A DNA stretch of 64,000 bases from Phoronis australis (taxonomy: Eukaryota > Animalia > Phoronida). Made by a program: the position numbers and the translations under genes. Under the pieces are notes generated by a model that ran no database searches, was not told the origin of the DNA, and was given only the letters and a program-made list of their open reading frames with translations. Shown here piece by piece: positions 4,501 through 64,000 of this stretch; within the stretch, counting starts at the first letter, position 1, and the number at the start of each line of letters is the position of its first letter. Location: NCBI GenBank assembly GCA_002633005.1, contig NMRA01000563.1:1-64000 (forward strand), written 5' to 3'.

Positions 4501-7500
4501 ATAGGATCCTATAGGAATTCCTATGTGATGTGTGCTTTCTTGCTTTGTTGATCCACCAAGTTTGAACACCCCTTGTCAAGATTACCCCCAAGATGATTGC
4601 AGCACAGCTCGTCAGTATCCAACTCCAGTGACATAACAGAAGAAACTGGCCACCAAGCCGTATTGCTCTAAAAGCAATTTGGCTACTCAGATAATAGGTC
4701 TGCATCACCAAGCAAGCTCATGAGAGCGAAATCTGCAACATGAGGTTTTAAACTCTGTAATTATCACATTATTAGTAATGAGTATTCCAGGGCCAAGTTA
4801 TTCAGAATACACAGCGGAGATAAAATAATTAGTTAATTATCATCTCAGCCAGCACTATTAACACTTTGTTGAGCTGTATTTAGTTACGCGCGCATGCACC
4901 CACACGTACACATACATGGCTGATTTACTGTTGAGCTAATAATTGAGTTAGCCCAAACACCTACAGTGTTATCAGAATGCTGTTATTGCTATTCAGTATC
5001 CTACCTGCTACAACATTCACTTGGTAAAGGCCCAGGTAAGCATCGGCAATGATAAGGAAGCCTTGTGGGTCAAACTTCATCCCCAAAGGTCGGCCACAAG
5101 TTGGTTCATCCGCATCTGTGCCTGCAACGGAAACACAGAAATTTGCACACTGTTTATGAGAATGACAAGCAGCTATTCTGGATGTTGAAACTGCATTTTC
5201 TATGTTGAACTGGCTAAGAATGAAAATAGAATTCAGCATTTTACCTCATTTCTTACCAGGATTCTAATTTCATTTATGGACAAGAAAAACAAACCATCAG
5301 TGACACATGAAGATCTTTCAAAGTATTGAAGTTAGCCAACTCTAAAATTGCAGATTTGCAAATGGTGCATGTACATATTACCTGCGACTTGAGTTTCCAG
5401 CTCACTTGGCAACACTACATTCAAGATTGGATGAGTGCGGTGTTCTTAAGGCTTAAGTAAAGCACTTCCATTAAGAATTCAACATTGACTGCTAAATATT
5501 AGCGAAATGCAGCTTTAATTCACATGTTTTTTCTAATAACTTAACCATAACTGCAAATCACAAATTCTTACCACATGGAGGTTTGCCCAGTCTGGTAACT
5601 TCCCTCAATTTTCCATCATAGATTTCCATTATTTTCCCATCAGCAGTTCCCGTATATAAGTAATGACCTAAAAACAAATAATTACACATCATCCAGTATT
5701 TCTCATCATACTCAAACATTCAGCAGCATTCTTAAATTACAGAGCAGTTCCTGTATATAAGTAATGACCTAAAGACAAATAATTACACCTCAACCAGTAT
5801 TTCTCATCACACTCAAACATTCAGCAGCATTCTTAAATTACAGAGCAGTTCCCGTATATAAGTAATGACCTAAACACAAATAATTACACCTCATCCAGTA
5901 TTTCTCACTGGACTCGAACAATCAACAGCATTTTTCAATTACAGATAATTACATGTACCACACTAAAAGGCCTAACATGTCTTGTACTTTAATGAACTAT
6001 TTATTATTTATTTAGTAATTATTTTTTTATTTAATCATCTTGTCTTTTACTTTTAGTATCTTCTATTTATTGTTTTTTTATTATTTATTTTGTTTCGTCA
6101 TTTGTTCCATGTCATCATTGATCATTAAAGTCTTGTCTTTGTAACGTATATTTTGATTGATTGCCCCCGGGAAGTAGTGAAAAGTGGTGGGGTTACACTC
6201 ATTGTAAAGATCCCAATAAATAAATAAAAAAAATCCCAGAAGGAAAACTGCAGGTAACTAGTCACCTCGCTGTAACTGCCAAGGTGAGATCCCCATTAGT
6301 TTTGGTACATATCCAACATTGAAGTTACATATCACTAATTGTCACTATACAGTCAACAAGATATCACAAATTACTGCTAAGAACATCTGAGTGAAAAATT
6401 ATGCACCGGCCATTTCTCCCACTAATTTCAAAGACAAAATTAAGGATTTCAATTGTATCACGAACTGAATATCTCAGTGCTTAAGTCCAATATTACTTAA
6501 TAAATCAATAGTTCATTAATTACTTTAAATTCTCAAAGAAGATTCAGGATAATTTTTAATACCTACAATTAATCTTAAATTCATGCTTTGCTTATGATTA
6601 CATGGCATTTAAATAGATTCGTTTCATTTCTGTGCACTTGTACATTACCCGTTGGATCTTGCGCTATAGACTCAGGTCCAATGAGCTGCCCAGAAAATTT
6701 GTGCAGGGCATGTTGTAGTCTGTCATTATGTTCCAATGGACCAACCCATTTAGGTGGTGGGGGTAATCTGAATAAAAAGCAATAGAATAACTTAGAGACC
6801 AGAATGGTTCATATAATATACATTTTGTCAGATTTCCTGAGAATCTCCAAAGACAGTAAAGACACAGCTTGGCATCCAACAAGCTGCTCTGTGATGTGTC
6901 ATAGTAGTTTGTGCAAAACGGTACTACTGAGTTCTTATCCTAACCATCTAAATATCAATATATGCACCTGTGTATGAACAATTACAAGTAGCCCTGGTTG
7001 GTTTTCCCCTTCCCTTCAATTCAAGCTGCCTTGCTCTTGGGTTTTGTTTAAATGTTTCACATTATAGTGCATGTGCTAAATTTGAATATTATACAGATGT
7101 ACTTCCACATACAGGTGTAGGGCCTCAGACAATAAAATTCTACAGTGAAAAAATTAATTGCTCAACATGGTGAGAATTGTACGATGACACCTCAAAATCC
7201 AACTGCATGCTTGGTAGTTAGGTACTTGGCCTATGTTGCACAACCAGCAGAGCTTATGGGGAACATAGTATGGCAACATTATACAAACGTTTTAGGTTGT
7301 AAAATTCCGATTTTCAAAATTCAAAAACCTTATCACGTCGTTCTTTTCACAAATATGCTGCTTAAAACTTTCAAAATTACAAAATACTATTGTAACCCTC
7401 AGTGTGTTGATGGGTCCGATTATCTAGAGAACGATAAAGCAGAAGCCTGAGGCGATGTATGGCAGCATACGTAGTGTCTTTGATCAATGCGGGCAGATTA

Positions 7501-10500
7501 CGACTAAGTATGCAAACTGGTTGAGTTGCCCAATCTCTACTGGTGAGGGTGTACTGCCAGCGTAGGATTCTTTGGTTGGAGCTTGTACCAAATTTACAGT
7601 TAACATCAAAACAGTTGCTTTCACTTCAATCTGCTAGGGGCATCAACTTTTGGGAACAAAATGAGCTCAACTACTGTGAAATTTACTCAATTATAACTAA
7701 CTCCTGCTTAAGTCCGTATTCCAGACCATACCGGTTTTCACAGGCCTTATATCAATCTATCTTAATTGCCAGGCTCAGTCTTTTGTCCCATGTTACAATG
7801 CAAGCTGAATTAATACATTACTGTATACACGCCACAAGTCAACATGGTTGTCTGAAAACCCATCACAACAATTTGGCCCATTTTTATTGTGGTTCTTCCG
7901 CGAGAGAAGCATTCTACACTTTCACGAGGAATTCAATTTCAGAAGACAAGCATGCTAAAAAATTACCAGGTTCTGTCTTAGACATTTCAATTTATTTCAA
8001 CCAGTATTTTATTGCCATTTTTTAGACTTGTATGGCAGGCCCGTAATGATAAACGAATTAAACGAACTACGGCCAGTTTAAGGCTTGATCAAGTGGGAAT
8101 TCAAATCACTAATACACATACTTTCAGCAAAGCTTAAAAAATTGCTATGGCCCGTAGAAATCTTGAAAGCCCGGCGTCTAAAAGTGGTGAATTACTGTAC
8201 TCACTCTACCCCTTCTTAAAGAATTTTGCTTCACTTGGAGATGACTTTATTAAGTCGAAGTTAGCTCTAATTGGTAATTCCTACTGGCGCGAAGTATTTG
8301 GAAGTATGACATCTTTCTACAAGAAAAGAGGACTTTTTGAATCAACCTTTGTGGTTAATATTAACTTGGCGATCAGAGGCACAGGTGTTTTTTATAAGCC
8401 TTGGTTTGTAAAAGGCTTAAGACTTATTAGAGATATGTATACTTCTGATGGTGATTTTGTTAGTTTAAACAATATGAAAAATAGGTTCGATGTGAAAACC
8501 AACTTTGTAGAATATAATGGTGTTGTTTCTGTTCTAAGAAGGTTTCAAAAAAGTCTATTTGAAAGTAAATTTAAAAGTGTTAATGTCTACTGTCCTTGCA
8601 TGCCTTTAGCAATTACTCACTTATGGAAAGATTTGAAGGGTTGTAGACATTTTTGTTCAGTCTTTAATGACGTTAAGAAACCTAAGGCAGAGTGTAAATG
8701 GGGAATAGAGCTAGGAGATAGTTTAGAGTGGAAGAAAATATGATTGCTTTACCTTACAAAATTACAAAGGATCCCCATATTAGATGGTTCCAACGTAGAA
8801 TACTACACAGGATTATTGCAACAAATACTCTTTTTAGTCAAAATATGTGTTAGGGATTCTGATTTATGTTCCTTTTGTAATAATGCTCCAGAGATGCTGT
8901 CACACCTTTTTTGGGAATGTAGCTTTGTACAAGATTTCCGGAAAGAATTCGGAAAGCTACTTCAAAAGTGTCGCATTCAGCTTCCCAACTGTCTGTCTTA
9001 CGATTGTGTTATTTTTGGACTTTACAAGACCCATGATTTTCTATTTAGCATTTTGCTTCTACTAGCTAAACAGTACATTTACAAGTAGAAATATCACAAA
9101 TATACCTAATTTTCACAGGTTGGTTACATATACTTATGAGTACTATAGTGCTGAAAAATTAATTGCATATAAAAACTTTGTATACGACAGCTTCTCTGCG
9201 AAATGGGAAAATTTTATTGTTCATGTTAACTACATGTAGAAGATATTTACTTTGAATGAGATAGGAAAATGGTCTTCCTGAGGTGTGCATGGATTATGCG
9301 TGAATGAATGGTGTTCTTATTTGTTGTTTGTTTGTTTTTGTAATTGTTTGTAAATGATAATAAATACCTAAAAAAAGTATTTTATTGCCATGAAGACATT
9401 GCTAATGCGATAACTGCATGTACAACACAAGAGGAGCTTAGATCAATTTTCGTGATATCAAGGGTGGAGGGCGACACAGGGTTTCCCAGTTGATGTAGAG
9501 AAGCATTGTTCAACCACAAAATACCACTGAACGGCAGGGTTTACCCGCCTGTTTCCTTTGACTAAGTGCATGGTGTAGAGACGAGTTGCACACTTAAATG
9601 ACCTCATAGTGACTTATAACTTGCATTTACAAATTACATTCCACCCAACCCCCTGGTCGCTAATCTCATCTTCTGAAGGGGAGTAAATTTGAAAGAAAGT
9701 GATCTTTCCCACAGAAGTTAGGCTACTTGCGGTCAGTAAAGAATGTTAGGCAGGGGGAATAAAGGTTCAGTGGGAAAGTGACTTTTTAGTAACAAAGATT
9801 TACACGCTCCATCAACTCGAACATGTCTTCATGAATAGGCTTGACATGTTGCTTGGGTGGGGTGTACCTTGCTGTCATCAGAATTCCTTTGACACAAGAT
9901 CCAGCAGGGTAAAGCACCTCGCCTAGCCTAGTCTTAGTGTAGGATGGTCTGTAAACGCTATTCTCATGTCACATTTTGATTCCAAAAAATGAAACTGACA
10001 AAAGATTCTTTTCAATTTTGATAACTCCTTCTTGTTCCCATTCAGTCATGAAAAATGTACAAATGCAAAGCAGGACAGCTACCACCACCAAGAAGTTTAC
10101 TTACGATATAACAATTGGATCTACAGGACTTGTAGTCAGTAGCAAGTACAATGTGATCAAAGTCAACAGTAGAAGTACACTAGAAACCACCCAACGTGCT
10201 AGTGTTTTGCAACCTGCTGTAGATCTGAAAAACACAAGCACGAGTTCAAAATTTCATCAAGCAGACCTACCAGAAAATGCACTCAAAATTTCTCCAGATA
10301 ACACATTGCAGAGTTCCACTGAGGTAAGCTCTGGCTGCAGATAACACATCGCAGAGTTCCACTGAGGTAAGTCCTGGTCACAGATAAAACATCACAGTTC
10401 CACTGAGGTAAGCCCTGGCCGCAGATAAAACATCACAGTTCCACTGAGGTAAGCCCTGGTCGCAGATAACACATTGCAGAGTTCCACTGAGGCTCAAGCC

Positions 10501-11738
10501 CTGGCCGCACAAACCCTCATGACCATAACTCTGGTGTACCCAAAGCCAAGGAACAAAAGCGTGTTTTAACCCAATACATTTATTTGCAGGGATGTGGCTG
10601 GGGTTGGGTGGCCCCAGCTGTATATCCTTACAATATAATGAACAATACATCACATAAAACAAATAGGTATTTTGAAAATAATTACTCATAGGATAATAAG
10701 CACAAGATCGTTATGAAAAGGGAAGAGGAAAGGAAAAGCAGGACTTTCATACACTCATTCACACTCACCTACATTCAATTTAATTAACTTGCCTTATATT
10801 TACATACTGTATTTTGGTGAAAAAATTCAGTTTTCTTACAAAATGATATAGAACTGGTTGAAAGGTAACACCATACATTGTTTAAACCATGTAATAAGGG
10901 TTAAATGTGTGTGCTACTATGACTTTAAATCAGAAACATCATGATGAATGATGAGATGGCCGTAACATCATGATGAATGACGAGACAGCCGTAACATCAT
11001 GATGACTGATGAGACGTCCATAACATGATGATGAATGATGAAACGGTCGGCACTAACATCATGATCACTGATGAGACAGCCGTAACATCATGATGACAGA
11101 TGAGACGGCCATAACATCATGCTGACTGATGAGACGGCCGGTAGTGTTTACTCTGTTACAACAGACTTTAATGTAAAAACACGTTTTTAGGGAAAACAAC
11201 ACATAGTCTAACAGGTCAACAACTTTTCATAAAAACTTTATCATTTCCCTTCAATAATTCACTCAAAATTAGTTAATACAAAGCACAGTATACCAAATAT
11301 AATGTGTCTTGTATAAAGGATCAGTGCTTCCAGGCATTAGTGTTTCAAAAACAGGCACAATGGTACTATCACTTACAATTACAAGTTGCTATTCCTTTCT
11401 TTGTAGACATGTTTAAACTCAACTAGTGTTAATAAAGTAACCATTACCATCTACCATTTTGTAACAGATAAGCCAAGTTTCAATCGCACATTTCACAAAT
11501 TTGCTCCCCAGTTGCCAGTCAATTGTTTCCAGCACATACTCCTCACTTGGGATATAGGCGTAACTTCACATATGGGCACATGGTGCTAAATATCCGCATC
11601 TACGGTGTAGTGAAATGAGAATACAACATACCTGAGAGGTGATGCTTTAGTTGGAGCCCCATAAGTATCATCAATCGCTGGTTCACTAAGCTCATCAACT
11701 TTTTTCCTATGCCTCACTTGGTCGCCTTCATAGTTCAT
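1407..11738 (-). CDS. APMAP: Adipocyte plasma membrane-associated protein (strictosidine synthase-like), spliced, 3'-partial; exons 11632-11738, 10105-10224, 6649-6767, 5572-5667, 5005-5121, 1407-1566
   Basis: Six GT-AG exons join in frame: N-terminal tail, one TM helix, then GPESIA, YTGTADG, CGRPLG, ADAYLGL, FLNDMDI and YVTDSS motifs characteristic of APMAP/hemomucin. Confidence 0.92.
1603..3640 (+). mobile_element. Internally deleted, degenerate Ty3/Gypsy LTR retrotransposon (RNase H and integrase remnants) in APMAP intron 5, antisense to the gene
   Basis: ADAGPVGLGAVLMQ, ERRYSQIEKEAL, TDHKPL, ARIERW, HxG..CxxC, VDYYSRF, SDNG and RTKLP motifs with stops and frameshifts; polypurine tract aaggaaaggagaga before the LTR start TGTCATG at 3561, which resembles 1603; right end of the LTR uncertain. 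Confidence 0.88.
2678..2916. mobile_element. Small non-autonomous DNA element (MITE) nested in the Gypsy integrase
   Basis: Imperfect TIRs CAGGGGCGGAT / ATCTTCCACTG, 5-bp TSD GCTTA (2673-2677, 2917-2921); removal restores the integrase frame. Confidence 0.85.
3756..4525. repeat. CCTATAGG-palindrome satellite-like/foldback repeat
   Basis: Many TCCTATAGGA variants in two blocks (~3756-4200, ~4350-4525); near-perfect inverted repeat ~3792-3877 / ~3924-4009. Confidence 0.85.
5005..5121 (-). CDS. APMAP: APMAP coding exon 5
   Basis: ttgcag|GTDADEPTCGRPLGMKFDPQGFLIIADAYLGLYQVNVVAG|gtagga, phase 1 to 1. Confidence 0.94.
5572..5667 (-). CDS. APMAP: APMAP coding exon 4
   Basis: ttttag|GHYLYTGTADGKIMEIYDGKLREVTRLGKPPCG|gtaaga, phase 1 to 1. 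Confidence 0.93.
5642..5944. repeat. 3 x 101-bp tandem repeat spanning the APMAP exon 4 acceptor
   Basis: Units start at 5642, 5743, 5844; each has 26 nt of exon plus 75 nt of intron. Confidence 0.95.
6649..6767 (-). CDS. APMAP: APMAP coding exon 3
   Basis: attcag|LPPPPKWVGPLEHNDRLQHALHKFSGQLIGPESIAQDPTG|gtaatg, phase 2 to 1. Confidence 0.92.
8019..9375 (+). mobile_element. 5'-truncated LINE (L1/Tx1-like ORF2 C-terminus with zinc-binding motif) in APMAP intron 2
   Basis: Disrupted ORFs 8147-9088 with CSFCNNAPEMLSHLFWEC; AATAAA and A-tail; TSD AGTATTTTATTGCCAT at 8003-8018 and 9376-9391. Confidence 0.9.
10105..10224 (-). CDS. APMAP: APMAP coding exon 2 (transmembrane helix)
   Basis: tttcag|STAGCKTLARWVVSSVLLLLTLITLYLLLTTSPVDPIVIS|gtaagt, phase 2 to 2; SPVDP corresponds to the APMAP SPIDP motif. 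Confidence 0.9.
10295..10510. repeat. ~5 x 41-43-bp minisatellite
   Basis: Unit CAGATAACACATTGCAGAGTTCCACTGAGGTAAGCCCTGG at 10295, 10338, 10381, 10422, 10463. Confidence 0.92.
10935..11140. repeat. ~7 x ~29-bp minisatellite
   Basis: Unit AACATCATGATGA(A/C)TGATGAGACGGCCGT. Confidence 0.9.
11632..11738 (-). CDS. APMAP: APMAP coding exon 1
   Basis: aagATG MNYEGDQVRHRKKVDELSEPAIDDTYGAPTKASPLR, donor ag|gtatgt, phase 2; VRHRK resembles the APMAP LRQRR N-terminus. Confidence 0.8.
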
Positions 11739-13368
11739 CTTCCTACGGAATACAATGAAAATACAGTGAAGCTGGAACGGGAGAGCATGTTATGGACATG
11801 TCGTAAACATCTCCCCGCCTTAAGAGTCTTTTGTGTGTACTATTCGAGTTGTGGCCAGGCTGACTTGTTAGGTACCAAGAAGAAAAGTCCACCTGTTGAA
11901 AGATGTAATGAGCATGTGCCGTTGGCATGAATGCGAGAGTCAAGCATTCAAACCATGCTTCGAGAAGACAATGGCTCACTGGCAAGCGATTTAGAGAGGC
12001 TTTATACGACTGTACGTCACACACACGGAACCAGAAATTTACAACATGCAATTAGTGTAATTCGGTAGCAGCCCTTTGTTTACATAAACTTCGTGTGTAC
12101 CGCACGCTGGCTCTGTTTCGATAGGGTTGCGGGCTCCCGACCGTGTGCAGCATTCACACTTTCTGCTTGTATGCCCCTCTTCCCGCTGTCAAGTGTATTT
12201 CACTGATTATTTCACTATGCATCATGTTCATTTCACTTATTGTCTGATGATGAGACATGCAGTCTCCAAATATAGCAAATGTTTTAATTTGTTTGTTTGT
12301 TATGTCTCTCGGTTTTTTATTACATACCTGCAGACCTGAAGAAAGACGACTGTTCCGAAACTACGCGCATACCAGTATCAAGCTTGCAAATGAAAAGTCT
12401 AGTCATGTTTTTAACGAACATGCAATTAGAGGACTTTGATTTTAAAAATCCACGAATTATGAATTAAAGACTTTGATTTAGTGACTACTCATACATGTCA
12501 ACTATTTTTTTGCTTTGATCACTAATTTTTGTGAAGAAATATCGCACTAATGAAAACAAGTCAAATTTGTTCAAAATGGCAACAGAATGCATTTACATAC
12601 TTCAGGTAAGAACAAGGCCCTATTTGTGCAGATGTATCAGGTGTCCCAAAAAGTGAGTCACTTTTTGACAAGTAATTTCTCAGCAATTGACCATCCAAAT
12701 TCGTTCAAATTTTTCGTAATGTACAGGGATATACTTAGCCACTCGCCCAGTCGCCAATGCGAGTAAAAATGGTGCTGTAGAAGCTGACTTGCCGGTCGCC
12801 CAGGTGACGAGCGAATTTTCAGAGTGCAAAAACACTGTATCGTTTCCCCGATGAACATGAATAAATTTTCTCCTCCATGTGCTGTTTTTATCATGACTTT
12901 AAGGTTCAGTTTAGTCAGCGTGTCGAGTCTCCAGCAGTAAGAACATCGGCGCAGTGCGATGCTACCAATTCAGTAGATGTCACCCGATATGCGATTCGTC
13001 TAGACAAAAGAACACAGTACGTGGTCTTGCACAAAGGAATTTGTGGACTAGTCCGAAATGAAGAAAAGGGGGAAAGGCGGAAGACCGGTCCATGCGCTCG
13101 CAGCAAGTGAAATACCATTATTCTTGGAACTGATTTCTTATTGTAATCTGGGAGTGATATCATCCTAGTTGTAATGTACAATGCAATGTCATTTTAGCCA
13201 AAATTATTTTATAAATAATAACATTCTTTACTAATAAGCGACCATGCCCCTATAAGCGACCCCCCCGCACACGTTTTCAGACTTCACTAAACTAAAAGTC
13301 CAGTCCATGAATGTGTACATATGCGAAAAATGCCTTACCTACAGTTCTAAAATTCTACAGTAATGTCT

Positions 13369-13645: not shown

Positions 13646-14079
13646 AAACTTGACCAGTGTTAATAAGCACGTGGCCAAGAAGCGCAAGCTAGGGTCCACG
13701 TAAATGTTAGTATGTGGGCCAGCTGCTACCGAACTCTGACGACACACATGCGCTCACTCACTCGGCGCACACCAGCAGACTAACTTCAAAACAAACGTCA
13801 CGTGACAACAACATGTGTGTTCGTCCAGATTTTTCGCTTGTTGCAGGTGCGATCTAGCCCAGATTTGGACTGCGGTTAATCCCGACTCCACAGGAACTTG
13901 GAAAACTTTAAGGAGAATGCCACCCGATTTAATTACCATCTTAATAGGTCTATATCCACATCACCTCGTATACGGTCGATCTCACCTCGCCAAGAGGTAT
14001 CGCGTTAACCTGTGTCAGGAAGGTGAGAAACGACTCGGCAACGTCATTGGTTAATTCTTCTGCAGAGTGAGTATTGCTA

Positions 14080-14375
14080 TGGAGTGGTATTATCCCTCCC
14101 GCTTGTGCGAACTATGAAGCTACGAGGAAAGCAGGCATATCGTTTTTTCGATTTCCTCGAGAGCACAAAATGCTTCGGAAGTGGTTCGCGGTAGTGAAGA
14201 ATGAAAAGTACGTCGTAATACCATTTAAGTATGAGGCCGTGAAACTTCTCCGTGTCTGTGGCCGGCATTTCGTCTACAGTGATTTCACTGAAGATCGAAT
14301 GCCGGCTTACCAAACAGCTCATGCCAGGGCAGAAAAAGAGACTGAGTAAGGAATCAGATGTTGTGCCTAGTGACT
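14080..14375 (+). pseudogene. THAP zinc-finger domain relic
   Basis: CANY..ISFFRFP..RKWFAVV..RVCGRHFVYSDF, then frameshifted DVVPS (AVPT-box-like). Confidence 0.85.
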
Positions 14376-14531
14376 GTTTGGTTTCGGTAGGCAGGAGACA
14401 AAACAACGCGGATCGGTTGTTGCTCAGTTTTTGATTATGATGAATTGAAGCTGCATGGCCATGGAAACAAACAATTACAAGTAATTCAAGGCATGAGAAC
14501 ATAACGTTTTATAACCTGTTTGATGACATAC

Positions 14532-19600: not shown

Positions 19601-19702
19601 ATGACGGCTGCAGTAAGCCTGGATATTTCCAGAAGAAATCCCCAGGATGATTTCGAGTTAATACAACGAGTTGGAAGTGGAACTTACGGTGACGTTTACA
19701 AG
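19601..19702 (+). CDS. MAP4K3: MAP4K3/5 coding exon 1
   Basis: caac[37 protein letters not shown]|gtgtgt. Confidence 0.95.
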
Positions 19703-52700: not shown

Positions 52701-55700
52701 ATTTTCCTTTCCATTAACCATTTTTTATTTGCTAATAAGTTGTAAACTCTTGGTTCTTGCGAACACTTCTATGTTGTCTATTGAATTTTTGAATGCTTTG
52801 TCACAATTGACCTATCATCAGGATTTTGAGTGACAGCTTAACTGACCAATCAAAATGCAGTGTTCTTGACACACCTTCGTTTCCAAGCCGCCATTTTACC
52901 CGACAAACAACACATTGTCTGGTAAAACTTATTTGTGAATTTCTCTAAAGCTGAAAATATTTCTTAACATGTCTGGAGGAATAGTTTCTCTGAATTTCAG
53001 AGAAACTATTCCTGTCTGAATATAAACTCGTAACGTTATCATTCTATTATTTGTCCATACTTTGGTGAAAGTGCGTACCATGCTTTGCTTAACAGTACTA
53101 TGCCTTGTGAATGCTTTAAAGTTGCAGTTTTTTTGAATGGGAGTGGTGGTGGCAATTAAAATGCTATTTATGAAATTAATGTTTTCAAGAATTTTTTTAA
53201 GTTGTAGTTAACATTTTCCTGTTAGTGTATGAAGAACAGGTACTGTTCATTGAAGAGTCAGAATGCTTACAAAGAATATTCTGAAAAAAAAGTTAACTAA
53301 AATGTTTGACGTTTTGTCATTCCTTTTGCTAAGATGCTGTAAGATCCGATGGGTTGTTAGGGGGAGGACTACCAGTATGGGCTGTAGTGGTGTTACTCTG
53401 GCATGCCTGGTGTGAAATAAAAATAAAATAAACATGACTTTCGCGATGTTGTTATTCCTTTGAATTGTGTTTGACTGACACTGGGTCCTAAAGCACTCAG
53501 ACAAAAATTCACCATTTTTCAAAATTGTGTCTAGTAGGCAGTATTGACCAGCTTTCGAGACGGCAAATTATGCCTCACTCTGATTAAAACATCAAAGTCA
53601 TGTTGTTGTAACTACCCTTTGCACATAAAAGGACACCTTAGGAGGCCATCGATGTATTTAATTCCTTCCACCTCGAACAAATACTCAAGCAATCAAACTT
53701 TTTCTTCAAGCAGTCCTTCAGTGTAAGGCATATGGTAAAAATTCCCAAATTTAGGGCAGCGAAAAAAAATAACTATTTTGAGCCTGTCTGAAATTTTAAA
53801 AATTGGCAATATTGGCCGTCCGCAATTCGAGAAATATGAGAAAGATGGCAAAATCGATGGTGTCCGAAATCTTAGAATTTATGCTGTTGGGTGCCGACAA
53901 TGTTTTGATTTGCGGTTTTAGATCGTTTGAACAGCCGCGCAGATTTGTAATTGTTATTGCTGACAAGAAATTCACAGGATGTCCTCAAAAACATAAACAG
54001 CAATGTTACTGACTCTGAACACAGTCGACTTACCAAACTTTGTGTAACATGCCTTGACTGATTGTTCGCAATATACATTCATTGGTGCTTAACGTCTTCA
54101 CAATAAACTATTTGCAAGCCAAACACAGACAACGGGACTGCAATATGTGTAACCCTGGTTTGTTTCTGGGGCAGAGCGTGCGACACACTCATACATACCT
54201 GGCACTCAAACAGACGAAAACGGCATTCCCACCAACGAGGTACAAATGAATGAGGTTCCCCCAGTCTTAGCTCGATTACGTATCCGGGCATTTATTTGAC
54301 AATTATAGAACTGTTGCTTCATGCAGTTGGGGTATATTCAATCAATATAAGTTTGCAATTGTTATTCCAAAACATAGCAATAGGCCAGATCACAATTTAA
54401 CGGAGGTAGAGCCTACGTAGTTCTAACCACAAAACATCACCACACGCAAGTGACTGTTCTAGTAGCCAGCTACAAGGGCGTTAGCTTCTTCGACGCTAAT
54501 TAGGCCTATGCTTTAATATAAAAGTGGTTCGTTCCGATAATCTCGGCCCTTGCATTCGTGGTTGTTGTAATTTTATGTGTCCTATGTTCTCTCCGGCATG
54601 ATAGCAGGTTCATTTTACAAATCACATTCCATGGGTCAAAGGACCCATGAAAGGGAAGGGACTGGAGACGGTTGGAAATGGAGCAACTTTTACTGAAGAT
54701 TAATAGGTTCATACTCTGTTTTAGGTGGCTTCTAAGTTCTTAACCTTGAGGTGCGAGTGTGTAGAATACAAAATAGGCTAGTAAACAGAATGTCAGTAGG
54801 GAGACATAAAGATATATTTACATGAAAATTTTTAATGTATACTGCACGACAAACTAGGACATGGATTTTTGCTTTTCATAAAGTCTGTTTTAACACTAAA
54901 CAACATTGTTTTGTCAATTCGGGTGCATGGCATAACGAAGGTCGGAGTGTTGAGAGGAAGGTAAGTGAGCCGCTGATTCACAGAAAAAAAATTGAAGTCA
55001 TGAACCCGGTATTCAACTTGGAAACACAAAGGTCTCATCTCCGGCACTTATTAATTAGCTGTTAATCCAAATACAACGTGCCACTGTGGCGATTACATGA
55101 AATTCGGAGAACATAATTTCATTTGTATAGTGAAACTGCGATCAAGCGTGGCAAATATTTTGAGTTCATGATTATGACTGCCAAGAAAACGTGCGAGATA
55201 TACCCAAACCATCTACATCAATACAATAACTTAAGACCACGACACCAGTCAATTCATTACACCGATGGCTGTTTTGAACGATGTGTAAATAATCACTGTT
55301 ATTTGATGAACTTCCAGATTTACATTCATCATGCAAAAAAGCGCACTGTCCGAAATGTGAGAATTACTACCAATGCCGCTAAAATTGATGTGTCTGAAAT
55401 TTGAGAAATATGGTGAATGCCAAATTTGACCGTGTCCCAAATTTCAGAATAAAAAATTCAGTTCGGGGTTGGATTTAGGTGTCCAAAATTCGAGAGGCTG
55501 TCCTAAATTCTGTAATTTTCAGCGTAATTTACCGAAAAGCTCCCAGCATATGAAGCGCCTATAGGAGCTTCACCTTCTCGAAGGATGGTCGACACAGTGG
55601 TTACTGTCTATTTGTCTAGTTTCTTCTTTCAACTGATTGACGAACAACATATAAGGAATAACACAATTAGTGTTCACCTTCTAAGCTTCCTTTTCCAAAC

Positions 55701-58700
55701 TATCTAAGCTGGTTGCTCTCTTTAAATATTCTGTCTTATGGCCTAGTCTTAATAGTTCATGCACAAGATTTTTGAACAGCACATAGTATTGGACACCATG
55801 TTTTGAAAGGGGGAACAAATTGCAGGCACCAAGATATTAGTTGTTGGCGCCACAAGTTATGTGATGGGTAAAAAGCGGATTTCAAGACTTGGTATTTTGC
55901 ATTTTTTGTGCAAGCCATGTTAAAACTCCACATGGGGAGAGGTGCAAAATACAAGGCAGTGACCTCCATACTGGCTAGACTCTCTTGCTGTTGTTAATAA
56001 TTACATGAATGTTGTGTAGTGCTCATTATTAGTTCCACGTAGCTGTTACGTATTATCATTATTATTTCTGTGAGTGTCACTTTCTTTCCCCACCAGGACT
56101 CTCCTCCAATCTGTTAATGACGAATTACTCCAAAGGTAACCATTCACGTTCACGTTCCTTACCTCGTAATCTCTATCCGTGATTTTCTCGGTTTCTGTGA
56201 TCACACGCTGATAACTAAACACGTCGAGTGCGGCAAACGAAACTGAGAGTTACTTCTCCATATGCTCTGAAGTCAAAACCTTGTTAGTTGTATCTTGCCT
56301 CTAGTTCAGTAGTTGTAGTTAGTAATACTTGTACAACAGCTTTCTTGCCTTAATGAGCTATTTACTAATCCTAACCATTTCAAGGCTTTTGTGTGTGCCT
56401 TTTTATGACCACCTTATTTTCTGCTAATAAACAGTTTTAAAATGTGTCGTTCAGCTCGTGAAATGACATCCAATTTTCAACTTTGTTTTAAAGGATGCTG
56501 TTGTTCCCCTTGAAAAATCTTATAATAAATCATGTTAATCATTATTTAGAATGAGCTATACTTGTTTTACGAAGAACAATATGTTTTCAAGACATTCTCT
56601 TGAAATAGTTGAACAGTGTTTAATTATCAGAGGATTTGTGAAACCTTTAACTATTGAGATTTGTGGGAATGTACTTGGTATATTAGAGTTGACAGTAATA
56701 CTGGCATTTTCCTATCCACTGTAGGGGCCACAGGGATAGCCTGTGTGATCTGGACGTGGATGTCTACCGGTATTCTGAACAGTAAGCTGTGTGTGCTACC
56801 TACTGTGTAGAGCAAGTCTGTACTGTCCTGTGATTGGCTGATGAGATGTGCCCCCACAGTGCATGGATCACGTGTCATTGGCTCTGATCATGATGGAGTC
56901 GTTTTTGATTGGTCAATAATGTTGTTTTACATGACTTGAGTTCAACAGGTCATCTTTTTTAAATAGTGCACTTTGTCTGAACTCAGTTGGAAAATGACAC
57001 CAGTGATATGTGCATTATATTTTTCAATGTGACATCAAAACTTTAAGAACAATTAAATGGAGATTTGTTTGCCATAAAAATTGTCATATTTGAAGTTTAA
57101 GTTAAAAGATATTTACTGAGATAAAAGTATTTAGTATGCAGCAGTGCAATGGAACAGTGTTGTAAAATTTGGAGTCTTTGGAAGTTCAAGGGACTTCACA
57201 GTTTTTGTTGCTATTTTTACAGTAACTATTTCTCAATTGCATAGCAGTGGTAAAAGTATTAAAGCAGGATCCGTTCAAAAACTGTCGAGTGTCTTACAAG
57301 GTTTGGGCAGCTGCTGTAGTTATTTAAGTTATTATCAACATTATGACTACACTAGCTTCACCCATGACATTGCCTGCTATGTTGTCGAGTTGACTTATTT
57401 AAAGTTACACCTGAGTGTTGCCACTAGTTATAAATGTGTTGAGCATCCACAGTAAGCATGTTAACTCCATAGTAACCGAACTGGTGATTGCATGCCATCT
57501 ATGCACAGGAACATGTCTTCAGTTCATGCCTGGCATGCTCTAAGTAATCTTGTTTTTTTAATGTGACCATTGTTTATTAGCATAAAGAATTTGGCAGTGA
57601 GACAGCTCCCTTTCTTCTTATCGCCTTTGTGCTTGATGTGGGTGAATTTTGTTGCTTTTTGTTCATTGTTGCCACTTTTGTTGTGCCTGTTCTTCACAGA
57701 GGCTTTGCCAACGGTCATAATCATTTTTCTTCTCATAGCATCAGATAAAGTAATGGCAAAAAGGGTGGAAAATGATACTAAAACAGGGAATCAGTTGAGT
57801 TCTAAATTTGCTGATCACAAAAAAATAATGTTTCTGCCGGTGTTGTGACTCGTGCTTCATTAATCAAGTGACTTTATTTTCGACATGTCTATGAGATTGC
57901 TGCTATATTTTTTAAATCAATCTAAAGGTGTTAACTTGCCTTTTTTTCTTACTTCTCATCATTATTAATAATGCTCCACATCCTGAACTCCTTTTTGCAG
58001 ATGTAGAAAAACACTTTGTATGAATGACCTATTTTTCGTTAAGTTAGGTTGCTAAATGTTTTACAGTTGAGATGTTCAAGAAAATAATGCCTCAGTCAGC
58101 TTGGTGTTTCAACTGTAACAGTTTGTAAAACAGTGAAACTTTACTGTAATTTGAGCTAAATGGGAAAAATAAGTTTGTTGTAAAACAGTGATGACATGGC
58201 AAGGGTCCACCACCGTGTCCCTCTCAGGGTGTGACTACCACTGTGTCCCTCTCAGGGTGTCACTACCACTGTGTCCCTCTCAGGGTGTCACTACCACTGT
58301 GTCCCTCTCAGGGTGTGACTTCCTAGGTGATAGGAAGAGACCATTTTCTTTCTTCGATACATTTTGACATTTATTTACTAGTGCTAAGTGATTGCATAGT
58401 GCACTACTTCACTTCTGATGTTATGTCTTACACTGCATCTCTTGCACTCTGCCTTCGACAATGGACAGTAAGGCAATTCTTCAGCTATTTCACACAAAAA
58501 TAATACCCTAAATTGTCATTTTTCAAATTCTTAATGGCTGATTACTTTGCTGCAAATGATGAGAACATATTAACCAAATGTTGTTTTATGACATCTATAC
58601 GGTACAAACAAGCTAAACACTGTTGTTTATGACATCTACACAGTACAAACCAGCTAAACACTGTTGTTTATGACATCTACACAGTACAAAGCAGCCAAAC

Positions 58701-61700
58701 ATTGTTGTTTTATGACATCTGCACAGTACAAATCAGCCAAACATTGTTGTTTTATGACATCTACACAGTACAAACCAGCTAAACAGTGTTGTTATGACAT
58801 CTACACAGTACAGACCAGCCAAACACTGTTGTTTTATGACATCTACACAGTACAAACCAGCCAAACACTGTTGTTTATGACATCTGCACAATACAAACCA
58901 GCTAAACACTGTTGTTTTATGGCGTCTGCACAGTACAAACCAGCTAAACATTTGTTTTATGACATCTACGCAGAACAAACCAGCTAAACACTGTTGTTTT
59001 ATGACATCTACACTGGACAAACCAGCTAAACACTGTTGTTTTATGACGTCTGCACAGTACAAACCAGCTAAACACTTGTTTTATGACATCTACAAAGTAT
59101 AGAACCAGCCAAACACTTAGTAACAAATACTTTCTTAATCTTTTTTGTAACAAAAATTGATGAAATGAAATTTCACTTGCCTGCCATACTTTGTGTTAAA
59201 TAGGTGAAGAACTACCATATTATTATGTATCCAGCTCGAGTACTTGATGCACTTATGAAACAAAAACACTGTCTTGTGGAAACTCTGTGTGACGTCAACA
59301 TTGTGATAATGCAGTAAGTTTTCTGGGTTGTTTTTGTTTCATAATTTGCACGTCCTGTCTGTTATCGAGTTTTCAAAAGTAATTTTCCCAGACATTTCAC
59401 TTTCGATGTCCTCTTGTTTCAGAGAGACTCTTCCTCTAAGTGATGTTCCACCCATACCTCCTAAGGTAAGGCAGTGCTATTCATCAATTTTCATAGAGAA
59501 TTTCAACTTAGTGGCCAACGTTTGCTAATTATATGAATGGTTTTGAGAATCATGTTGAATTGTTTGGTAATTACTTGAATGGTTTGTGAGAATCCTGTTG
59601 GATTGTTTGGCTCATTTAAAATTCCAGTAAGCCTGCCATCCGTCAAAGTAGCTTAACTTTGATTTAGACCCTGTTACTCCTCAAAACTCATATTAACTCG
59701 CTCCATATTCATAGGAGAAGTTGTTTGAAAAAATTCTGTTTGTCTTTGCTCAAAACCTACTCTATGTAAATGACTTTTGAGCAATCATTTGTCTATTTGG
59801 GATCTCCACTTTGGGCTCTTTTTTTGGTCAAACAGAAAGCTATACGAATAGTTTTTTAATTTCCTACAAAAAACAGTAAAGTGTAATGGAATTGAAGTGA
59901 CGCTTCATCAGAACGGTACGAACCCTTCCCGTGCTGGATTGCTTTTACATTTGAGTTGTTGTGTTGTGTGGGATTTTTAAGCACCATCTGTGTTTGTTTG
60001 TTTGTACATCACCTAGTAAATGTCCTGGTTTTGCATCAGTTGTAGTTTGAAACACTGATGGTTTTAAAAAGCAATCATTTTTTAATCAACGAAATGAAAT
60101 TATTGGTTTATTTCATGGTATTGTGGCAAAGAGAAAGAGACCTTCTTATGTCTCATATCTTTATGTAACCCATTTTTGATCAATTTTAGGCAATTTTCCT
60201 CATTGACGATCGATAGGTTTTCTCATCAGTGTCCTACTTTTCCCATTATGGCTGTTCGTTTCCTCGTAAACCATATTCTTCCAAGCATCAAATTATGATT
60301 GCTCATGAGAAATGAATGTAGTTTCCAATAAAAGAATGCTAGAAGAACAGAATTGCTACTTTTGAAAGGAGATGAGAATCTTCGAGAAAAGAGGTAAGAA
60401 TTAGAAAAGAGGTATGTTATTGAGAAAAGTACGTCATTGTTGAGAATGCCCGTGTGTAGGAAGATTGTCCAACCTGCTCAAGTCCATACATTCCACTATT
60501 CACATTTAGCACTTTTCATTGACTCTCTAGCCTGACTATGGTTCTGCAAATTCCCGTGAGGGCTCCAGCGATGAAGATAATCAAGATATGCCGGTTGGTG
60601 TGGACTACATGGCGACACTGAGGCCTGGGGAGGAGCCACCAGTCGAGGAGTCAGCCTTCGATGAAGACGGGACACCCCCCGCACTGCCTCCTAAACAGAG
60701 ACAGGTAATTTATTATAATTGCATATGCTGAGTATGCCCAATTTCAGTTGTGGTAAATCTACCTCAATTTTGAACAAACACTATTGCCAAAATTCTAATT
60801 TTGTACGTTTTGGTGTCTTTCATCATTCCTACAAACTTTCTAAATTTTACTGTTGGCATTATTTTAGGATTGCTGTACAGAACAAGCCCTACGTGGAATG
60901 GAATGAAATTTTCTTTTAGTTTACTTTGGTATGATATTCTGTGAATAATTACAATCAGTCATTTCAGAGATATAGTGTTTTTATTGTAGGTAACTGAATA
61001 AACTTTGACATGTTTGTAGGGTTAATCATAACAGTTATACAGTTCTGTTTCTGTGTGGTATTGAAACTGTTTCTCTGTGTTTCACTGATCCTAGGGTATC
61101 ATTTGTCAAGAGCAAATATGAGATCATGCACGGTGTAATTACCACATGTTACCTTATGTCATGATGAAACTGAATTTTCACTTTCTCATATTGCTATTGT
61201 TTCATTATGGATAGATTCTGCGGTCAGGTTCAAAACACATTGTGTAAAATCAAATAATATATTGAATATGAGCGTAACAATTTTTCAACTGTACCTGCTA
61301 GAATTGTAAGATATTGTCTCCCACGCGGATAATCCAGTTCAATAGTAAATTAGCCCCATTCTTCACACTGCACTCATTTAAAAACATATACATGTGAGTT
61401 GAACTACACAGACCGCTGAAGGCTGCAATTGATCTATCCCCGGCTAGTTCCTTATTTGTCTTGCTAGGAAGTTAGTGGTGCTTTCGTGGAGAATTGAGAG
61501 AAGAAATTTTAGAAGAAAATCTACTGAGCGTCTTAAAAACAATGGAAGATGAATGAAACAAAGAAGAAAGGAGTTTGATTTTTGTCACATCATCAAGATG
61601 TGTTAAATGATAATGTAATTCTTCTTACAGCCGAATGGCGACTCCAGCACACTTAAGTCGGATGAGGCAGCTCCCCAAGTGCCCCCTAGGAGGGACCGCA

Positions 61701-64000
61701 AGAAGAAGGAGGGATCCAGTGTAAGCACACTGTTGTTGCCGTGCCAACTGTAGGGTAGCAAGGGTGGTGGAGCTTGAAGTGGCTGGCAACACAAGTTTAC
61801 GTGTGGACCCACATTTTTCTTATTACACCTTCTTTAGCAGCAGTACATAACATAGTGATGTCATCAATTGACTTAACTGAAGACATGATGAGGATTCAGT
61901 TGTCATTTCTAAATAATCAATGATAAGTTTTCAGACAGGCACAGGATATATACGGGCATGGTATCATATTTGAAATATTGTATTTGTCTAAATCAGTTAA
62001 ACACATGTGACGAAAATAAACTTAAGTTTTGACGATTCATTCATTATAACAGTAGCTGTTGTGGTCACTTTCAAACTTTGGGACTCTCTGGTTACTACAT
62101 TTGTGTTATTTCTAGTCGTAAACTGAGTTTGATATGAAGCATTCTTCTAGAACTGTGTTTCCCTCCATCGTCCCTGTGTTGTGTGTGGTGACTGGTTCTT
62201 TCTGGACAACAACTGAATGTTGTCATGTGTTATTATGTGTCGTTTCAGAGACCCGTCAGCAATGGCTTGCCACCCACACCTAAAGTTCATGTGAGTCTGG
62301 AATATGATAGTCAAGTGTTTCTTAGTGTGCCTTCTTACTGGTTCTCATACAAAAATGCTTGGGTTTCTTAAGTTGGCTATTCGCTGAAGAACAAGACTGT
62401 ACATGTTTGTTGTGAAATTTCCTTGAGTAACAACATTTATCATGGGATTCAAAAAGTGTGGTTACAAAGTGCTGTATCCCATATCGTCGAAACTTTGTGA
62501 TTCTAACATATTTCTGTGAATTTTGTTCCATTCTTGATGTCTTTGCATTCATTTAAGGAAATGTGCTAATCTGTGTAAAACTCTGAAAGTTCAAACTTTG
62601 TTTAGCGATTTTGTCAAACTTTAGAAAGGTATTCTTACAAACTGCCGTAGTTTGTACACATCGTCAAGATTTTGTGATTTCATCTTATTTCCTAAAATTT
62701 TTGCCCATTTTTGATTTTTTCTCATTCATATATGGAAATGTGTGCAACTGCAAGTTTGCTTACAAAGTACCCTAGTCCATATCATTGGTATTTTGCGATG
62801 CGACCCAATTTTGGCCTGTTCTTAATTTTCCATCTTAAGAAATGCACTTTCATGTGTAGCCCCCTACAGCTCCTTCATCAATGAATATTGCTGCCTACAA
62901 CTACCTTGTCTCAAATGTAAAGTACTCTAGACTTTGTTGTTCCCTGCCTACTTTTTTAAATTTCATCCAGATTCTTACTAGCTTGAGTGTATGAGACATC
63001 AAACTTGTCATTATTCACAGTTTTGCTTGTGCTCATAACTTTTCCCTTTGTGGTGTGAGAACCCTTGCTGTGAGTTGACCTCACTGCTGTTACCCAACCT
63101 CTGTGCTGTGACTCATGCTCTGCTCTGACTGCACCTCAAGGCACCTATTTTTTAATGGTTACCTGTGGAATATCTATTGTTCCTTATCAGGCCATCTTGC
63201 ATTAATCTTTGACCCAACACTGTTTCCAGTGGGGTTGTTTTCCTCTTTAATGTATATGGACTGCACCTCCACTATTTCTTACTGGTCCATCTTGCGTTAA
63301 ACTTCCACTCTCGTGCTGTTTCACCAAAATCTTCAATGAATGCCTGCTGTACATTCAGTAATCCTTGTCTGACCCCAAACTTTTGCAGATGGGCGCCTGT
63401 TTTTCCAAGATCTTCAATGGCTGCCCGTTGCACATTCATTGCTCGGCCAGTTGGATCCACCCAGAGACACGTGATCAGTACATCCTGATTGGCTCGGAGG
63501 AGGGTATCTACCACCTGAACCTGACAGAGATCCACGATGGCACCCTAGAGTTGGTGCACCCCAGGAGGTGCACATGGCTCTATGTCATCAAGGATGTTGT
63601 CATGTCACTGTCAGGTAGGTCATCAAGGATGTTGTCATGTCACTGTCAGGTAGGTCATCAAGGATGTTGTCATGTCACTGTCAGGTAGGTCATCAAGGAT
63701 GTTGTCATGTCACTGTCAGGTAGGTCATCAAGGATGTTGTCATGTCACTGTCAGGTAGGTTGTCATTGTCACATATTGGTGCTAGTAACATGCACGTTTA
63801 AGTTAAAATTTTATGCATTACATGAAAGTTGCATATTTGAAAAAAAATACCAAGGTTTATAATTATTTGCCTTAAGACATTGATGGAGTCTTTGTTTCAG
63901 GCAAGCACCAGCAACTGTTCCGACACGACTTGATGGCAATCATTAATAAACATCAGAACAGGTTCTCCCTACCCATGAACAAGATACCAGAGAGGCTGAT
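19601..64000 (+). CDS. MAP4K3: Mitogen-activated protein kinase kinase kinase kinase 3/5 (GCK-I STE20 kinase, happyhour-like), spliced, 3'-partial; 16 coding exons seen
   Basis: [95 protein letters not shown] (CNH start); all introns GT-AG with consistent phases. Confidence 0.95.
20105..20255 (+). mobile_element. Degenerate tRNA-derived SINE-like sequence
   Basis: A-box-like GAATGGTTAGCATG and B-box-like GGTTCGATTTCC; no intact cloverleaf. Confidence 0.4.
22090..22520 (-). repeat. Two diverged tRNA-like heads in direct orientation, 341 bp apart
   Basis: GTTGAAAAATCT..GACAC.GAGAC.TGAAC at 22092 and 22433; the reverse complement gives B-box-like GGTTCAAGTCTC. Confidence 0.45.
23542..23601. 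repeat. 3 x 21-bp tandem repeat
   Basis: CACCTGTAAATATGGTGATCT. Confidence 0.9.
25063..25597. mobile_element. Degenerate PIF/Harbinger-like MITE
   Basis: Imperfect TIRs GGTGGTTTGTCATTA / TAATGGGAAAACACC, TAA flanks, internal GAAACTT/GAAGTTTC sub-repeats. Confidence 0.5.
27058..27135. repeat. Imperfect (GAT)n microsatellite
   Basis: GATGATGATG runs. Confidence 0.8.
28416..28848. mobile_element. Degenerate Harbinger-like MITE
   Basis: CGTTTAGACA at the left, GTGTAAACGGCAC-TTA at the right; internal GACACGG/CCGTGTCA motifs. Confidence 0.5.
30465..30865. mobile_element. PIF/Harbinger-type MITE
   Basis: TIR AGGCCCTTTCACACTAA / TTAGTATGAAAGGGCCT with TTA TSD on both sides. Confidence 0.85.
34278..35247 (+). 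mobile_element. Old Helentron/HINE-like non-autonomous repeat with diverged internal tandem units
   Basis: 5' TGTCCC..GGGACA stem, recurring CCTTGAC(A/C)TCATTTT motif (~34431, ~34582, ~34988), 3' GTCAC-GCT-GTGAC hairpin before CTTGTT. Confidence 0.5.
36949..37385. mobile_element. Harbinger-like MITE
   Basis: Imperfect TIR AGTGCCGTCCACACACAGACTTACCCTA / TAGGGTAGCCCGTGTGTGGACTGGACT. Confidence 0.7.
37397..37847. mobile_element. Foldback MITE with ~198-bp inverted arms
   Basis: 37397-37594 is the near reverse complement of 37649-37847; 5-bp TSD TGTAT; arms built of ACACGG sub-repeats. Confidence 0.92.
38124..38693. mobile_element. Mutator-like MITE
   Basis: TIR CTCGCTGGTTTCCTGCGTGC / GCACGTAGGAAACCAGCGAG; perfect 10-bp TSD CAGGATGTAC. 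Confidence 0.9.
38892..39030. repeat. 3 diverged ~47-49-bp tandem units abutting the MAP4K exon 2 acceptor
   Basis: TAC(C/T)TTGCTG..TTAG..TTT..AAGTATT..TCTT three times. Confidence 0.75.
39038..39251 (+). CDS. MAP4K3: MAP4K3/5 coding exon 2
   Basis: tttcag|[37 protein letters not shown]|gtgagt. Confidence 0.96.
39907..40010 (+). CDS. MAP4K3: MAP4K3/5 coding exon 3
   Basis: tttcag|[34 protein letters not shown]|gtaggt. Confidence 0.96.
39988..40213. repeat. 5 x 46-bp tandem repeat spanning the exon 3 donor
   Basis: GCAAGATGCACAGAGATATAAAG|GTAGGT.. at 39988, 40034, 40080, 40126, 40172. Confidence 0.97.
42247..42557 (+). CDS. MAP4K3: MAP4K3/5 coding exon 4
   Basis: caacag|[28 protein letters not shown]|gtgagt. 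Confidence 0.97.
42914..43800. mobile_element. pogo/Tigger-like MITE with TA TSD
   Basis: TA|CCGTAAACGTTAGGGTTA .. TAACCCGAATGTTTACGG|TA; TTAAGCGCCC sub-repeats. Confidence 0.85.
43776..43900. repeat. 4 x 31-32-bp tandem repeat spanning the right end of the MITE
   Basis: AGGGC(G/A)GTAACCCGAATGTTTACGGTATACAT units at 43776, 43808, 43839, 43871. Confidence 0.92.
45807..46004. repeat. ~10 x 19-bp minisatellite running into the exon 5 acceptor
   Basis: TGTTTGCTATTGAAGAATA; ends 9 nt before the exon. Confidence 0.97.
46014..46095 (+). CDS. MAP4K3: MAP4K3/5 coding exon 5
   Basis: ttctag|[27 protein letters not shown]|gtaaac. Confidence 0.95.
46751..46853. repeat. Imperfect palindrome with an inverted relative at ~25965-26050
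   Basis: CACATTTTGAGAACCAGTT..AACTGGTACTCAAAATGTG; core ACCAGTTTTCTACACTGAAT.A.GGGCATC.AACTG shared with ~26000-26045. Confidence 0.75.
47196..47306 (+). CDS. MAP4K3: MAP4K3/5 coding exon 6
   Basis: ttccag|[37 protein letters not shown]|gtaggt. Confidence 0.92.
47906..48142. repeat. ~10 x 24-bp minisatellite just upstream of the exon 7 acceptor
   Basis: CGATATCTCTTGTCATTCACTCTA. Confidence 0.97.
48166..48247 (+). CDS. MAP4K3: MAP4K3/5 coding exon 7
   Basis: ttccag|[27 protein letters not shown]|gtaact, phase 0 to 1. Confidence 0.85.
48954..49578. mobile_element. Kolobok-type MITE with ~155-bp TIRs
   Basis: TTAA|AGGCGAAGGCAA.. TTGCTTTCACCT|TTAA; long near-perfect inverted arms. Confidence 0.92.
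50214..50640. repeat. 7 x 61-bp near-perfect minisatellite
   Basis: ATGCTGGCCACATAGAATGACACACCATGACAAGACAACTTGTA(G/A)AGCTTGGTATCAAGCA. Confidence 0.97.
50666..50796. repeat. ~4 x 34-bp tandem repeat
   Basis: CCCCCTCGTATCACCTCTAATTTAACTAAGTGGA. Confidence 0.95.
51013..51050 (+). CDS. MAP4K3: MAP4K3/5 small coding exon 8
   Basis: ttttag|[13 protein letters not shown]|gtatga; phase 1 to 0 fits neighbours. Confidence 0.65.
51734..51794. repeat. 4 x 15-bp tandem repeat upstream of exon 9
   Basis: CACAGCCA(A/C/T)GGTGC(A/G). Confidence 0.85.
51838..51875 (+). CDS. MAP4K3: MAP4K3/5 small coding exon 9
   Basis: ttttag|[13 protein letters not shown]|gtgagt; phase 0 to 2. Confidence 0.7.
53733..55524. 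mobile_element. Old ~1.8-kb non-autonomous DNA element with TGTCCGAAAT subterminal repeats
   Basis: AAAATTCCCAAATTTAGGGCAGC / GCTGTCCTAAATTCTGTAATTTT imperfect TIRs, TA flanks. Confidence 0.6.
56097..56135 (+). CDS. MAP4K3: MAP4K3/5 small coding exon 10
   Basis: caccag|[13 protein letters not shown]|gtaacc; resembles the MAP4K3 SLLKSVEEELHQR motif. Confidence 0.88.
58210..58320. repeat. 4 x 28-bp tandem repeat
   Basis: CCACTGTGTCCCTCTCAGGGTGT(C/G)ACTA. Confidence 0.93.
58572..59117. repeat. ~13 x ~41-bp minisatellite
   Basis: TTTTATGACATCTACACAGTACAAACCAGCTAAACACTGTTG. Confidence 0.95.
59423..59465 (+). CDS. MAP4K3: MAP4K3/5 small coding exon 11
   Basis: tttcag|[14 protein letters not shown]|gtaagg; phase 2 to 0. 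Confidence 0.85.
60531..60704 (+). CDS. MAP4K3: MAP4K3/5 coding exon 12
   Basis: ctctag|[20 protein letters not shown]|gtaatt; 58 open codons. Confidence 0.85.
61631..61720 (+). CDS. MAP4K3: MAP4K3/5 coding exon 13
   Basis: ttacag|[30 protein letters not shown]|gtaagc. Confidence 0.88.
62249..62290 (+). CDS. MAP4K3: MAP4K3/5 coding exon 14
   Basis: tttcag|[14 protein letters not shown]|gtgagt. Confidence 0.94.
63389..63614 (+). CDS. MAP4K3: MAP4K3/5 coding exon 15 (CNH domain start)
   Basis: ttgcag|[32 protein letters not shown]|gtaggt. Confidence 0.96.
63584..63760. repeat. 5 x 35-bp perfect tandem repeat spanning the exon 15 donor
   Basis: GTCATCAAGGATGTTGTCATGTCACTGTCAG|GTAG at 63584, 63619, 63654, 63689, 63724. 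Confidence 0.97.
63901..64000 (+). CDS. MAP4K3: MAP4K3/5 coding exon 16 (cut by the window edge)
   Basis: tttcag|[32 protein letters not shown]. Confidence 0.92.

Follow-up and report, generated by a model that had tools for sequence, protein, structure and literature searches.

Tandem arrays beside and across splice sites in two neighboring genes of a likely lophotrochozoan

The window, that is, the whole 64,000-nt stretch of DNA that was analyzed, contains two genes in a head-to-head arrangement: the minus strand carries an APMAP-like gene and the plus strand a MAP4K3/5-like kinase gene. Their models are as follows.

1407..11760, minus strand: APMAP-like gene, 6 exons, from RNA joints, an open frame and Pfam
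11632-about 11760, 10105-10224, 6649-6767, 5572-5667, 5005-5121 and 1407-1566, minus strand: APMAP exons 1-6 (the 5' end of exon 1 is approximate)
19601..64000, plus strand: MAP4K3/5-like gene, 17 coding exons within the window, from tblastn with homologs and a GT/AG reading
19601-19702, 39038-39251, 39907-40010, 42247-42557, 46014-46095, 47196-47306, 48166-48247, 51013-51050 and 51838-51875, plus strand: MAP4K exons 1-9
56097-56135, 56725-56781, 59423-59465, 60531-60704, 61631-61720, 62249-62290, 63389-63614 and 63901-, plus strand: MAP4K exons 10-17

The APMAP exons were defined from RNA; a homolog search using the exon 6 frame gave no match. All five APMAP introns were found as joints in raw RNA reads, and the model has an open frame of 239 aa with the Pfam domains Str_synth and SSL_N. 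The 17-exon MAP4K model encodes 617 aa free of stops, with GT..AG in 16/16 introns, and at least 7 of the 12 introns within 44001-64000 are among the RNA joints listed. These reads come from three raw runs carrying the same species label, from individuals other than the animal of the DNA run. An earlier reading of the sequence alone had numbered the MAP4K exons differently; its exon 15 is exon 16 of this model. Possible extra MAP4K exons at 58313 and 59203 were dropped by eye for stops or a frame mismatch. We also observed sense-strand RNA at a depth of ~2 in all three runs over 62677-63343, where no exon is modeled; it may be a retained intron or an unannotated alternative acceptor ahead of exon 16. 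The kinase is 52-56% identical to Branchiostoma versus 62-66% to several lophotrochozoans, and in a quick tree of rows other than echinoderms and hemichordates it joins a brachiopod, an annelid, nemerteans and molluscs in an open group with a support of 85. The three Branchiostoma rows of this tree lie outside that group. By this sequence comparison the host is placed outside the lancelet clade and is likely a lophotrochozoan.

Tandem Repeats Finder (TRF) at score 50 returned 42 rows, which we merged into 26 arrays, 24 of them intronic. The intergenic arrays at 17798 and 18902 were excluded from all counts, as was the output of looser settings (2 3 5 and 2 3 3), mainly low-identity noise. The arrays at exon edges, together with one decayed duplication, are listed below; those spanning a junction are called mirages, after their counterparts in amphioxus.

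5642-5945, minus strand: junction-spanning mirage, 101 bp x 3, at the APMAP exon 4 acceptor; 26 exon nt per unit, two spare acceptors upstream
39988-40222, plus strand: junction-spanning mirage, 46 bp x 5.1, at the MAP4K exon 3 donor; 23 exon nt, four spare donors
63584-63760, plus strand: junction-spanning mirage, 35 bp x 5.1, perfect, at the MAP4K exon 16 donor; 31 exon nt, four spare donors
38891-39027, plus strand: array of 48 bp x 2.9, 10 nt upstream of the MAP4K exon 2 acceptor
45807-46004, plus strand: array of 19 bp x 10.4, 9 nt upstream of the MAP4K exon 5 acceptor
47906-48142, plus strand: array of 24 bp x 10, 23 nt upstream of the MAP4K exon 7 acceptor
51730-51790, plus strand: array of 15 bp x 4.1, 47 nt upstream of the MAP4K exon 9 acceptor
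59520-59610, plus strand: array of 43 bp x 2.1, 54 nt downstream of the MAP4K exon 12 donor
10295-10509, minus strand: array of 41 bp x 5, 70 nt upstream of the APMAP exon 2 acceptor
63316-63438, plus strand: decayed two-copy duplication of the start of MAP4K exon 16, the copy lying 81 nt upstream

Three of the nine splice-edge arrays therefore span a junction and six stop short of one. The sequence-only reading had placed all of its arrays but one where TRF found them, and its distances, within ~25 nt for the MAP4K exon 2, 5 and 7 acceptors and ~45-70 nt for those of MAP4K exon 9 and APMAP exon 2, agree with our measurements; the array at 59520 was absent from it. Its claim of four junction-spanning arrays stands for the APMAP exon 4 acceptor, the MAP4K exon 3 donor and the donor it called exon 15. 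The fourth, at the acceptor of that same exon, has no TRF array at score 50 and is a single decayed copy of exon sequence: 63316-63357 matches 63397-63438 (exon 16 positions +9..+50) at 34/42 positions, with a score of 52 versus a best of 38 in 500 shuffles, and the expected copy of the acceptor is unrecognizable (5/31 identical, ungapped). Two weak two-copy duplications were left uncounted, one at 51891-51957, found with the looser TRF settings 15 nt downstream of the exon 9 donor, and one at 62480-62742 (period 177), about 190 nt downstream of the exon 15 donor.

The units of the edge arrays are local sequence of the genes, locus-specific and of differing lengths, and, as had been proposed, the arrays are copies of their hosts at mixed identity. 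That the units share no sequence with one another was likewise borne out, with 2/120 unit pairs scoring above all 60 shuffles, the number expected by chance. None of the units has a convincing further copy elsewhere in the window. We rejected a transposon-borne or dispersed minisatellite family as the source of the edge arrays, whose units are unrelated and whose flanks have single-copy depth (42-55; 44-64 kb). The host introns measure 286-19335 nt, or 144-19000 nt once their arrays are collapsed. Very short introns do not account for the clustering: the host introns have the lengths just given, and the own-intron null described below still leaves an excess. Intron gain by the Rogers model was also rejected: in every host intron 144 nt or more lies outside the array, and the opposite splice site is the intron's own.

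Other repeats and elements lie in the same window. Positions 1-505 are the end of a ~449-nt tandem satellite with one-strand RNA at a depth of about 230-335 and many go-back joints; 1590-3500 holds decayed LTR-retrotransposon-like fragments with a weak RT_RNaseH match (E 0.002); and 3757-4524 consists of self-complementary repeats of period 11-12 nt, two blocks of which are mutual inverted copies. On the plus strand, ORF fragments at 8138-9236 resemble a LINE end by eye and include a 201-aa piece without a Pfam match. A THAP domain (E 7e-9) at 14071-14346, within a repeat-rich intergenic stretch, is likely a decayed DNA transposon. Two arrays of 21-nt period at 37412-37830, reverse complements by eye, resemble a foldback element, and 48950-49582 is a MITE-like element of very high copy number with 171-nt inverted ends that are 93% identical. 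The arrays at 50214-50642 and 58578-59117, which show variant reads and raised DNA depth, are likely members of dispersed minisatellite families.

To ask how far array positions depart from even placement, we collapsed each array to one seed unit and placed the seeds, which were allowed to span junctions, either across all introns pooled or within their own introns. Positions no farther than 75 nt from a splice site make up only 6% of the intronic sequence. At this distance we counted 9/24 arrays (38%, short of the "roughly half" claimed from sequence alone), versus 2.18 expected under the pooled null (p = 1.3e-4). The permutation within introns that had been suggested as a check, run here in this window, likewise gave an enrichment (3.67 expected, p = 0.0017). 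The fold excess is 4.1 (95% CI 1.9-7.8) pooled and 2.5 (1.1-4.7) own-intron. Within 25 nt there are 6 arrays versus 1.17 expected pooled and 2.14 own-intron, and out to 250 nt the excess within own introns weakens (11 versus 7.87, p = 0.077). The enrichment holds up when parts of the data are removed: 8/18 arrays lie near sites once the 19 kb intron is left out (p = 0.002 and 0.007 under the two nulls), and 6/21 without the spanning arrays (p = 0.002). An acceptor-over-donor bias was rejected (6 versus 3, p = 0.51). The former argument that extra copies always lie on the intron side carries no evidential weight; this is a geometric necessity, because whenever a junction is copied in tandem, one site stays at the intact exon and the others come to lie inside the intron.

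We then considered which copy of a duplicated splice site is used. Among the splice sites adjoining arrays, 6/9 are confirmed by RNA, and the other three (MAP4K exon 2 acceptor, exon 3 donor and exon 5 acceptor) are based on strong kinase homology. At MAP4K exon 16 the first donor, 63614, is used in 27 + 26 + 25 = 78 RNA reads from the three runs, and at APMAP exon 4 the exon-adjacent acceptor, 5667, is used in 9 + 11 + 45 = 65. Reads at both junctions reach 72-74 nt on their short side, which exceeds the duplicated part of the exon. No joint to a spare site is among the RNA joints listed for these two junctions, with the RNA coming from other individuals. Splicing uses the exon-adjacent site at two arrays among the joints listed, in line with the proposal that the spliceosome uses the copy adjoining the intact exon, and presumably does so at the others. 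All 10 spare sites retain their GT or AG, and all 10 would yield a premature stop; purging of spare splice sites was not seen. RNA spliced at a spare site would therefore likely be degraded, and such decay could mask spare-site use in the RNA data.

Taken together, these arrays are probably mirage-type minisatellites: exon-edge DNA copied in tandem, arising more often near edges than elsewhere, and tolerated as neutral. They are likely a harmless by-product of DNA duplication. We suggest the following course of events. The units are all taken from local sequence and are unrelated among themselves. The process would begin with the duplication of a segment of 15-101 bp, in most cases where no direct repeat existed beforehand. 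The terminal overhang is 0-2 nt in 7/11 arrays measured and 5 and 8 nt in two, with two uninformative. We rejected long microhomology as a general seed, present in only 2/11 arrays, though this is above chance (p = 0.001). Duplication without long microhomology fits break fill-in with end-joining better than slippage. Growth and homogenization would follow by unequal exchange or slippage, as reports on mirages lead us to expect, and the high identity of the arrays may reflect homogenization rather than youth. At spanning arrays the exon-adjacent site would be used, and RNA from spare sites, with its premature stop, would be degraded. The last and least certain step concerns the source of the two- to four-fold excess at edges: with about even probability it would lie in where duplications start; where they survive takes a clearly smaller share of our confidence, and the picking of the window a smaller one still.

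An origin biased toward exon edges is favored because near arrays include perfect ones and because near and far arrays show no difference in identity (median match 91 versus 89, p = 0.57). Co-transcriptional breakage, which the sequence-only reading had proposed together with slippage or rolling-circle-type repair, is a candidate form of such a bias. More broadly, and more tentatively, we propose a duplication hotspot: in this and other marine invertebrate genomes, tandem duplications of 15-100 bp might start 2-4x more often within ~75 nt of a splice site, with the site included or not, by a process tied to splicing, to exon chromatin or to recombination that begins in exons. Mirages would then be its visible part. 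If true, such a hotspot would give unexplained mirages a mutational cause and would provide a steady supply of spare splice sites.

The same excess could also come from biased retention. Duplications would then originate evenly, with intron interiors turned over by transposon insertion and deletion and exon-flanking DNA protected. The introns here do carry high-copy repeats in their interiors (DNA depth up to about 177,000 at 48.7-50.0 kb), and the lower bound of the own-intron excess, 1.1, could be reached by a modest protection effect. However, the excess persists in single-copy DNA, where 5/8 arrays at 44-64 kb lie near sites versus 17% expected (p = 0.005), and after removal of the 7 arrays judged part of dispersed repeats (9/17). 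Near arrays are also no more decayed than far ones, which is not what slow retention alone predicts. We consider retention a minority reading, to which we give perhaps one chance in several.

A second alternative is that there is no general bias, and that a minisatellite-rich genome, a small sample and a window chosen after the fact account for the pattern, even placement occasionally giving spanning arrays. The sample is one window with two genes and 24 arrays, and the window was flagged for showing this very pattern; at the p-values obtained, chance would yield some 30-400 of 250,000 comparable windows. Because of this post hoc choice and chance yield across similar windows, the result supports a genome-wide bias without proving it. 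The spanning arrays alone are weakly enriched, 3/24 versus 0.64 expected pooled (p = 0.025) and 1.23 own-intron (p = 0.105), and the latter figure is what even placement could produce. Against this reading, the pattern occurs in both neighboring genes, the adjacent arrays that span nothing are enriched by themselves, and reports of repeats close to intron ends come from 31 plant and algal genomes (PMC3887541) as well as from several lancelet loci. On balance we think chance alone improbable as an account of the window.

A functional role appears much less plausible still. The arrays might tune splicing, through spare sites that feed RNA decay or through repeated branch-point or pyrimidine tracts, and be selected for it. 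The 10/10 intact spare sites in young arrays would agree with this, and so would strong splice-site-like motifs in units of several non-spanning arrays, where 8/64 tests gave p values of 0.05 or less (p = 0.014 overall).

38891 and 58209: sense acceptor motif in non-spanning unit
60384: sense donor motif in non-spanning unit
10295 and 23542: antisense donor motif in non-spanning unit

The spare sites of young copies are, however, intact because the copies are near-identical. Furthermore, the units have no shared motif, no alternative joint is among those listed, and lancelet mirages reportedly leave splicing normal (PMC3087553 and PMC3902484).

The DNA reads indicate that the arrays are genuine. 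Single-copy contigs of DNA run X1, at a depth of 42-55 and without differences, terminate at 45836, 47935, 50243, 58244 and 63613 and begin at 45975 and 50767, and 7/7 of these listed breaks beside arrays lie 30 nt inside the array edge. Such a position is expected if a graph of 31-letter words, a length we infer, branches at a real repeat. X1 contigs also pass without difference through three shorter arrays, including 51730-51790. Since short-read contigs break at array edges, the arrays are not inventions of the assembly; X1 possibly equals the source sample and hence would be no independent individual, and its short-read contigs, which cover 44-64 kb, cannot count copies. The 30-mer at the edge recurs in the window at 5/7 contig ends and occurs once at the other two, both in non-spanning arrays. 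At these two edges the reads must contain a unit order absent from the assembly, from another allele or from collapsed copies. An assembly artefact, such as exon-guided misjoins, can be dismissed almost entirely: the missing unit orders may reflect wrong copy numbers or allelic differences, but the contigs break exactly at array edges and traverse the three shorter arrays, the DNA joints listed include none that skips an array near a junction, and the copies bear substitutions of their own.

Our preferred reading, tandem duplication of exon-edge DNA as a largely neutral process, has practical and evolutionary implications. Junction arrays mislead gene prediction by suggesting false exons and false sites. 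An excess that held genome-wide and in new mutations would point to mutation being biased by gene structure, and would supply material from which splice sites could shift and introns be gained.

The sequence-only reading had left open whether the arrangement was already described. It is, both as amphioxus mirages (PMC3087553 and PMC3902484) and in intron 7 (IVS7) of human F7 (PMC1557585). A search of mostly open-access literature found no report of a lophotrochozoan mirage and no genome-wide test there of minisatellites at junctions; PMC4039745 and PMC6905558 offer no close parallel.

Amphioxus mirages are reported in Adh3, the globins BflGb6 and BflGb9, troponin C and PGBD5 (PMC3087553 and PMC3902484), and their origin is stated as unclear in PMC3087553. 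As here, locus-specific tandem units span a donor or acceptor and carry spare GT or AG sites; splicing is reported as normal there, and here the exon-adjacent site is used at 2/3 spanning arrays among the joints listed. Their units are given as 10-160 bp, versus 35-101 bp for the spanning arrays in this window. Three arrays here span the exon boundary as mirages do, whereas the six adjacent arrays do not and the decayed copy at 63316 does so in part. Amphioxus mirages vary in length between haplotypes or cells; in this window, unit orders absent from the assembly are implied at 2/7 edges, in non-spanning arrays. The present case further differs in that the host is not a lancelet, 6/9 edge arrays do not reach the junction, and the excess was quantified.

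In human F7, the first unit of a 37-bp VNTR in intron 7 spans the donor, the identical pseudo-donors downstream are silent, and the upstream-most donor is chosen (PMC1557585), as at MAP4K exon 16. That case is a single human locus tested by mutation, and the available text is silent on acceptors and on clustering. Across 31 plants and green algae, the density of tandem repeats in introns is reported as U-shaped, with peaks at 10-19% and 80-89% of intron length (PMC3887541). Tandem repeats are thus commoner toward intron ends there as here, whereas the motifs discussed are mostly microsatellites, without junction copies. Internal tandem repeats at exon-intron boundaries are described in duplicated human genes (PMC2812944), and Rogers-type intron gain in PMC3087553. 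Both, as reported, duplicate splice signals as here but can create new introns or isoforms, whereas, unlike in Rogers-type gain, the arrays in this window lie inside introns that exist without them. The arrangement is therefore already known, and what is new is its occurrence in another lineage, together with an RNA-checked excess of arrays beside splice sites in long introns.
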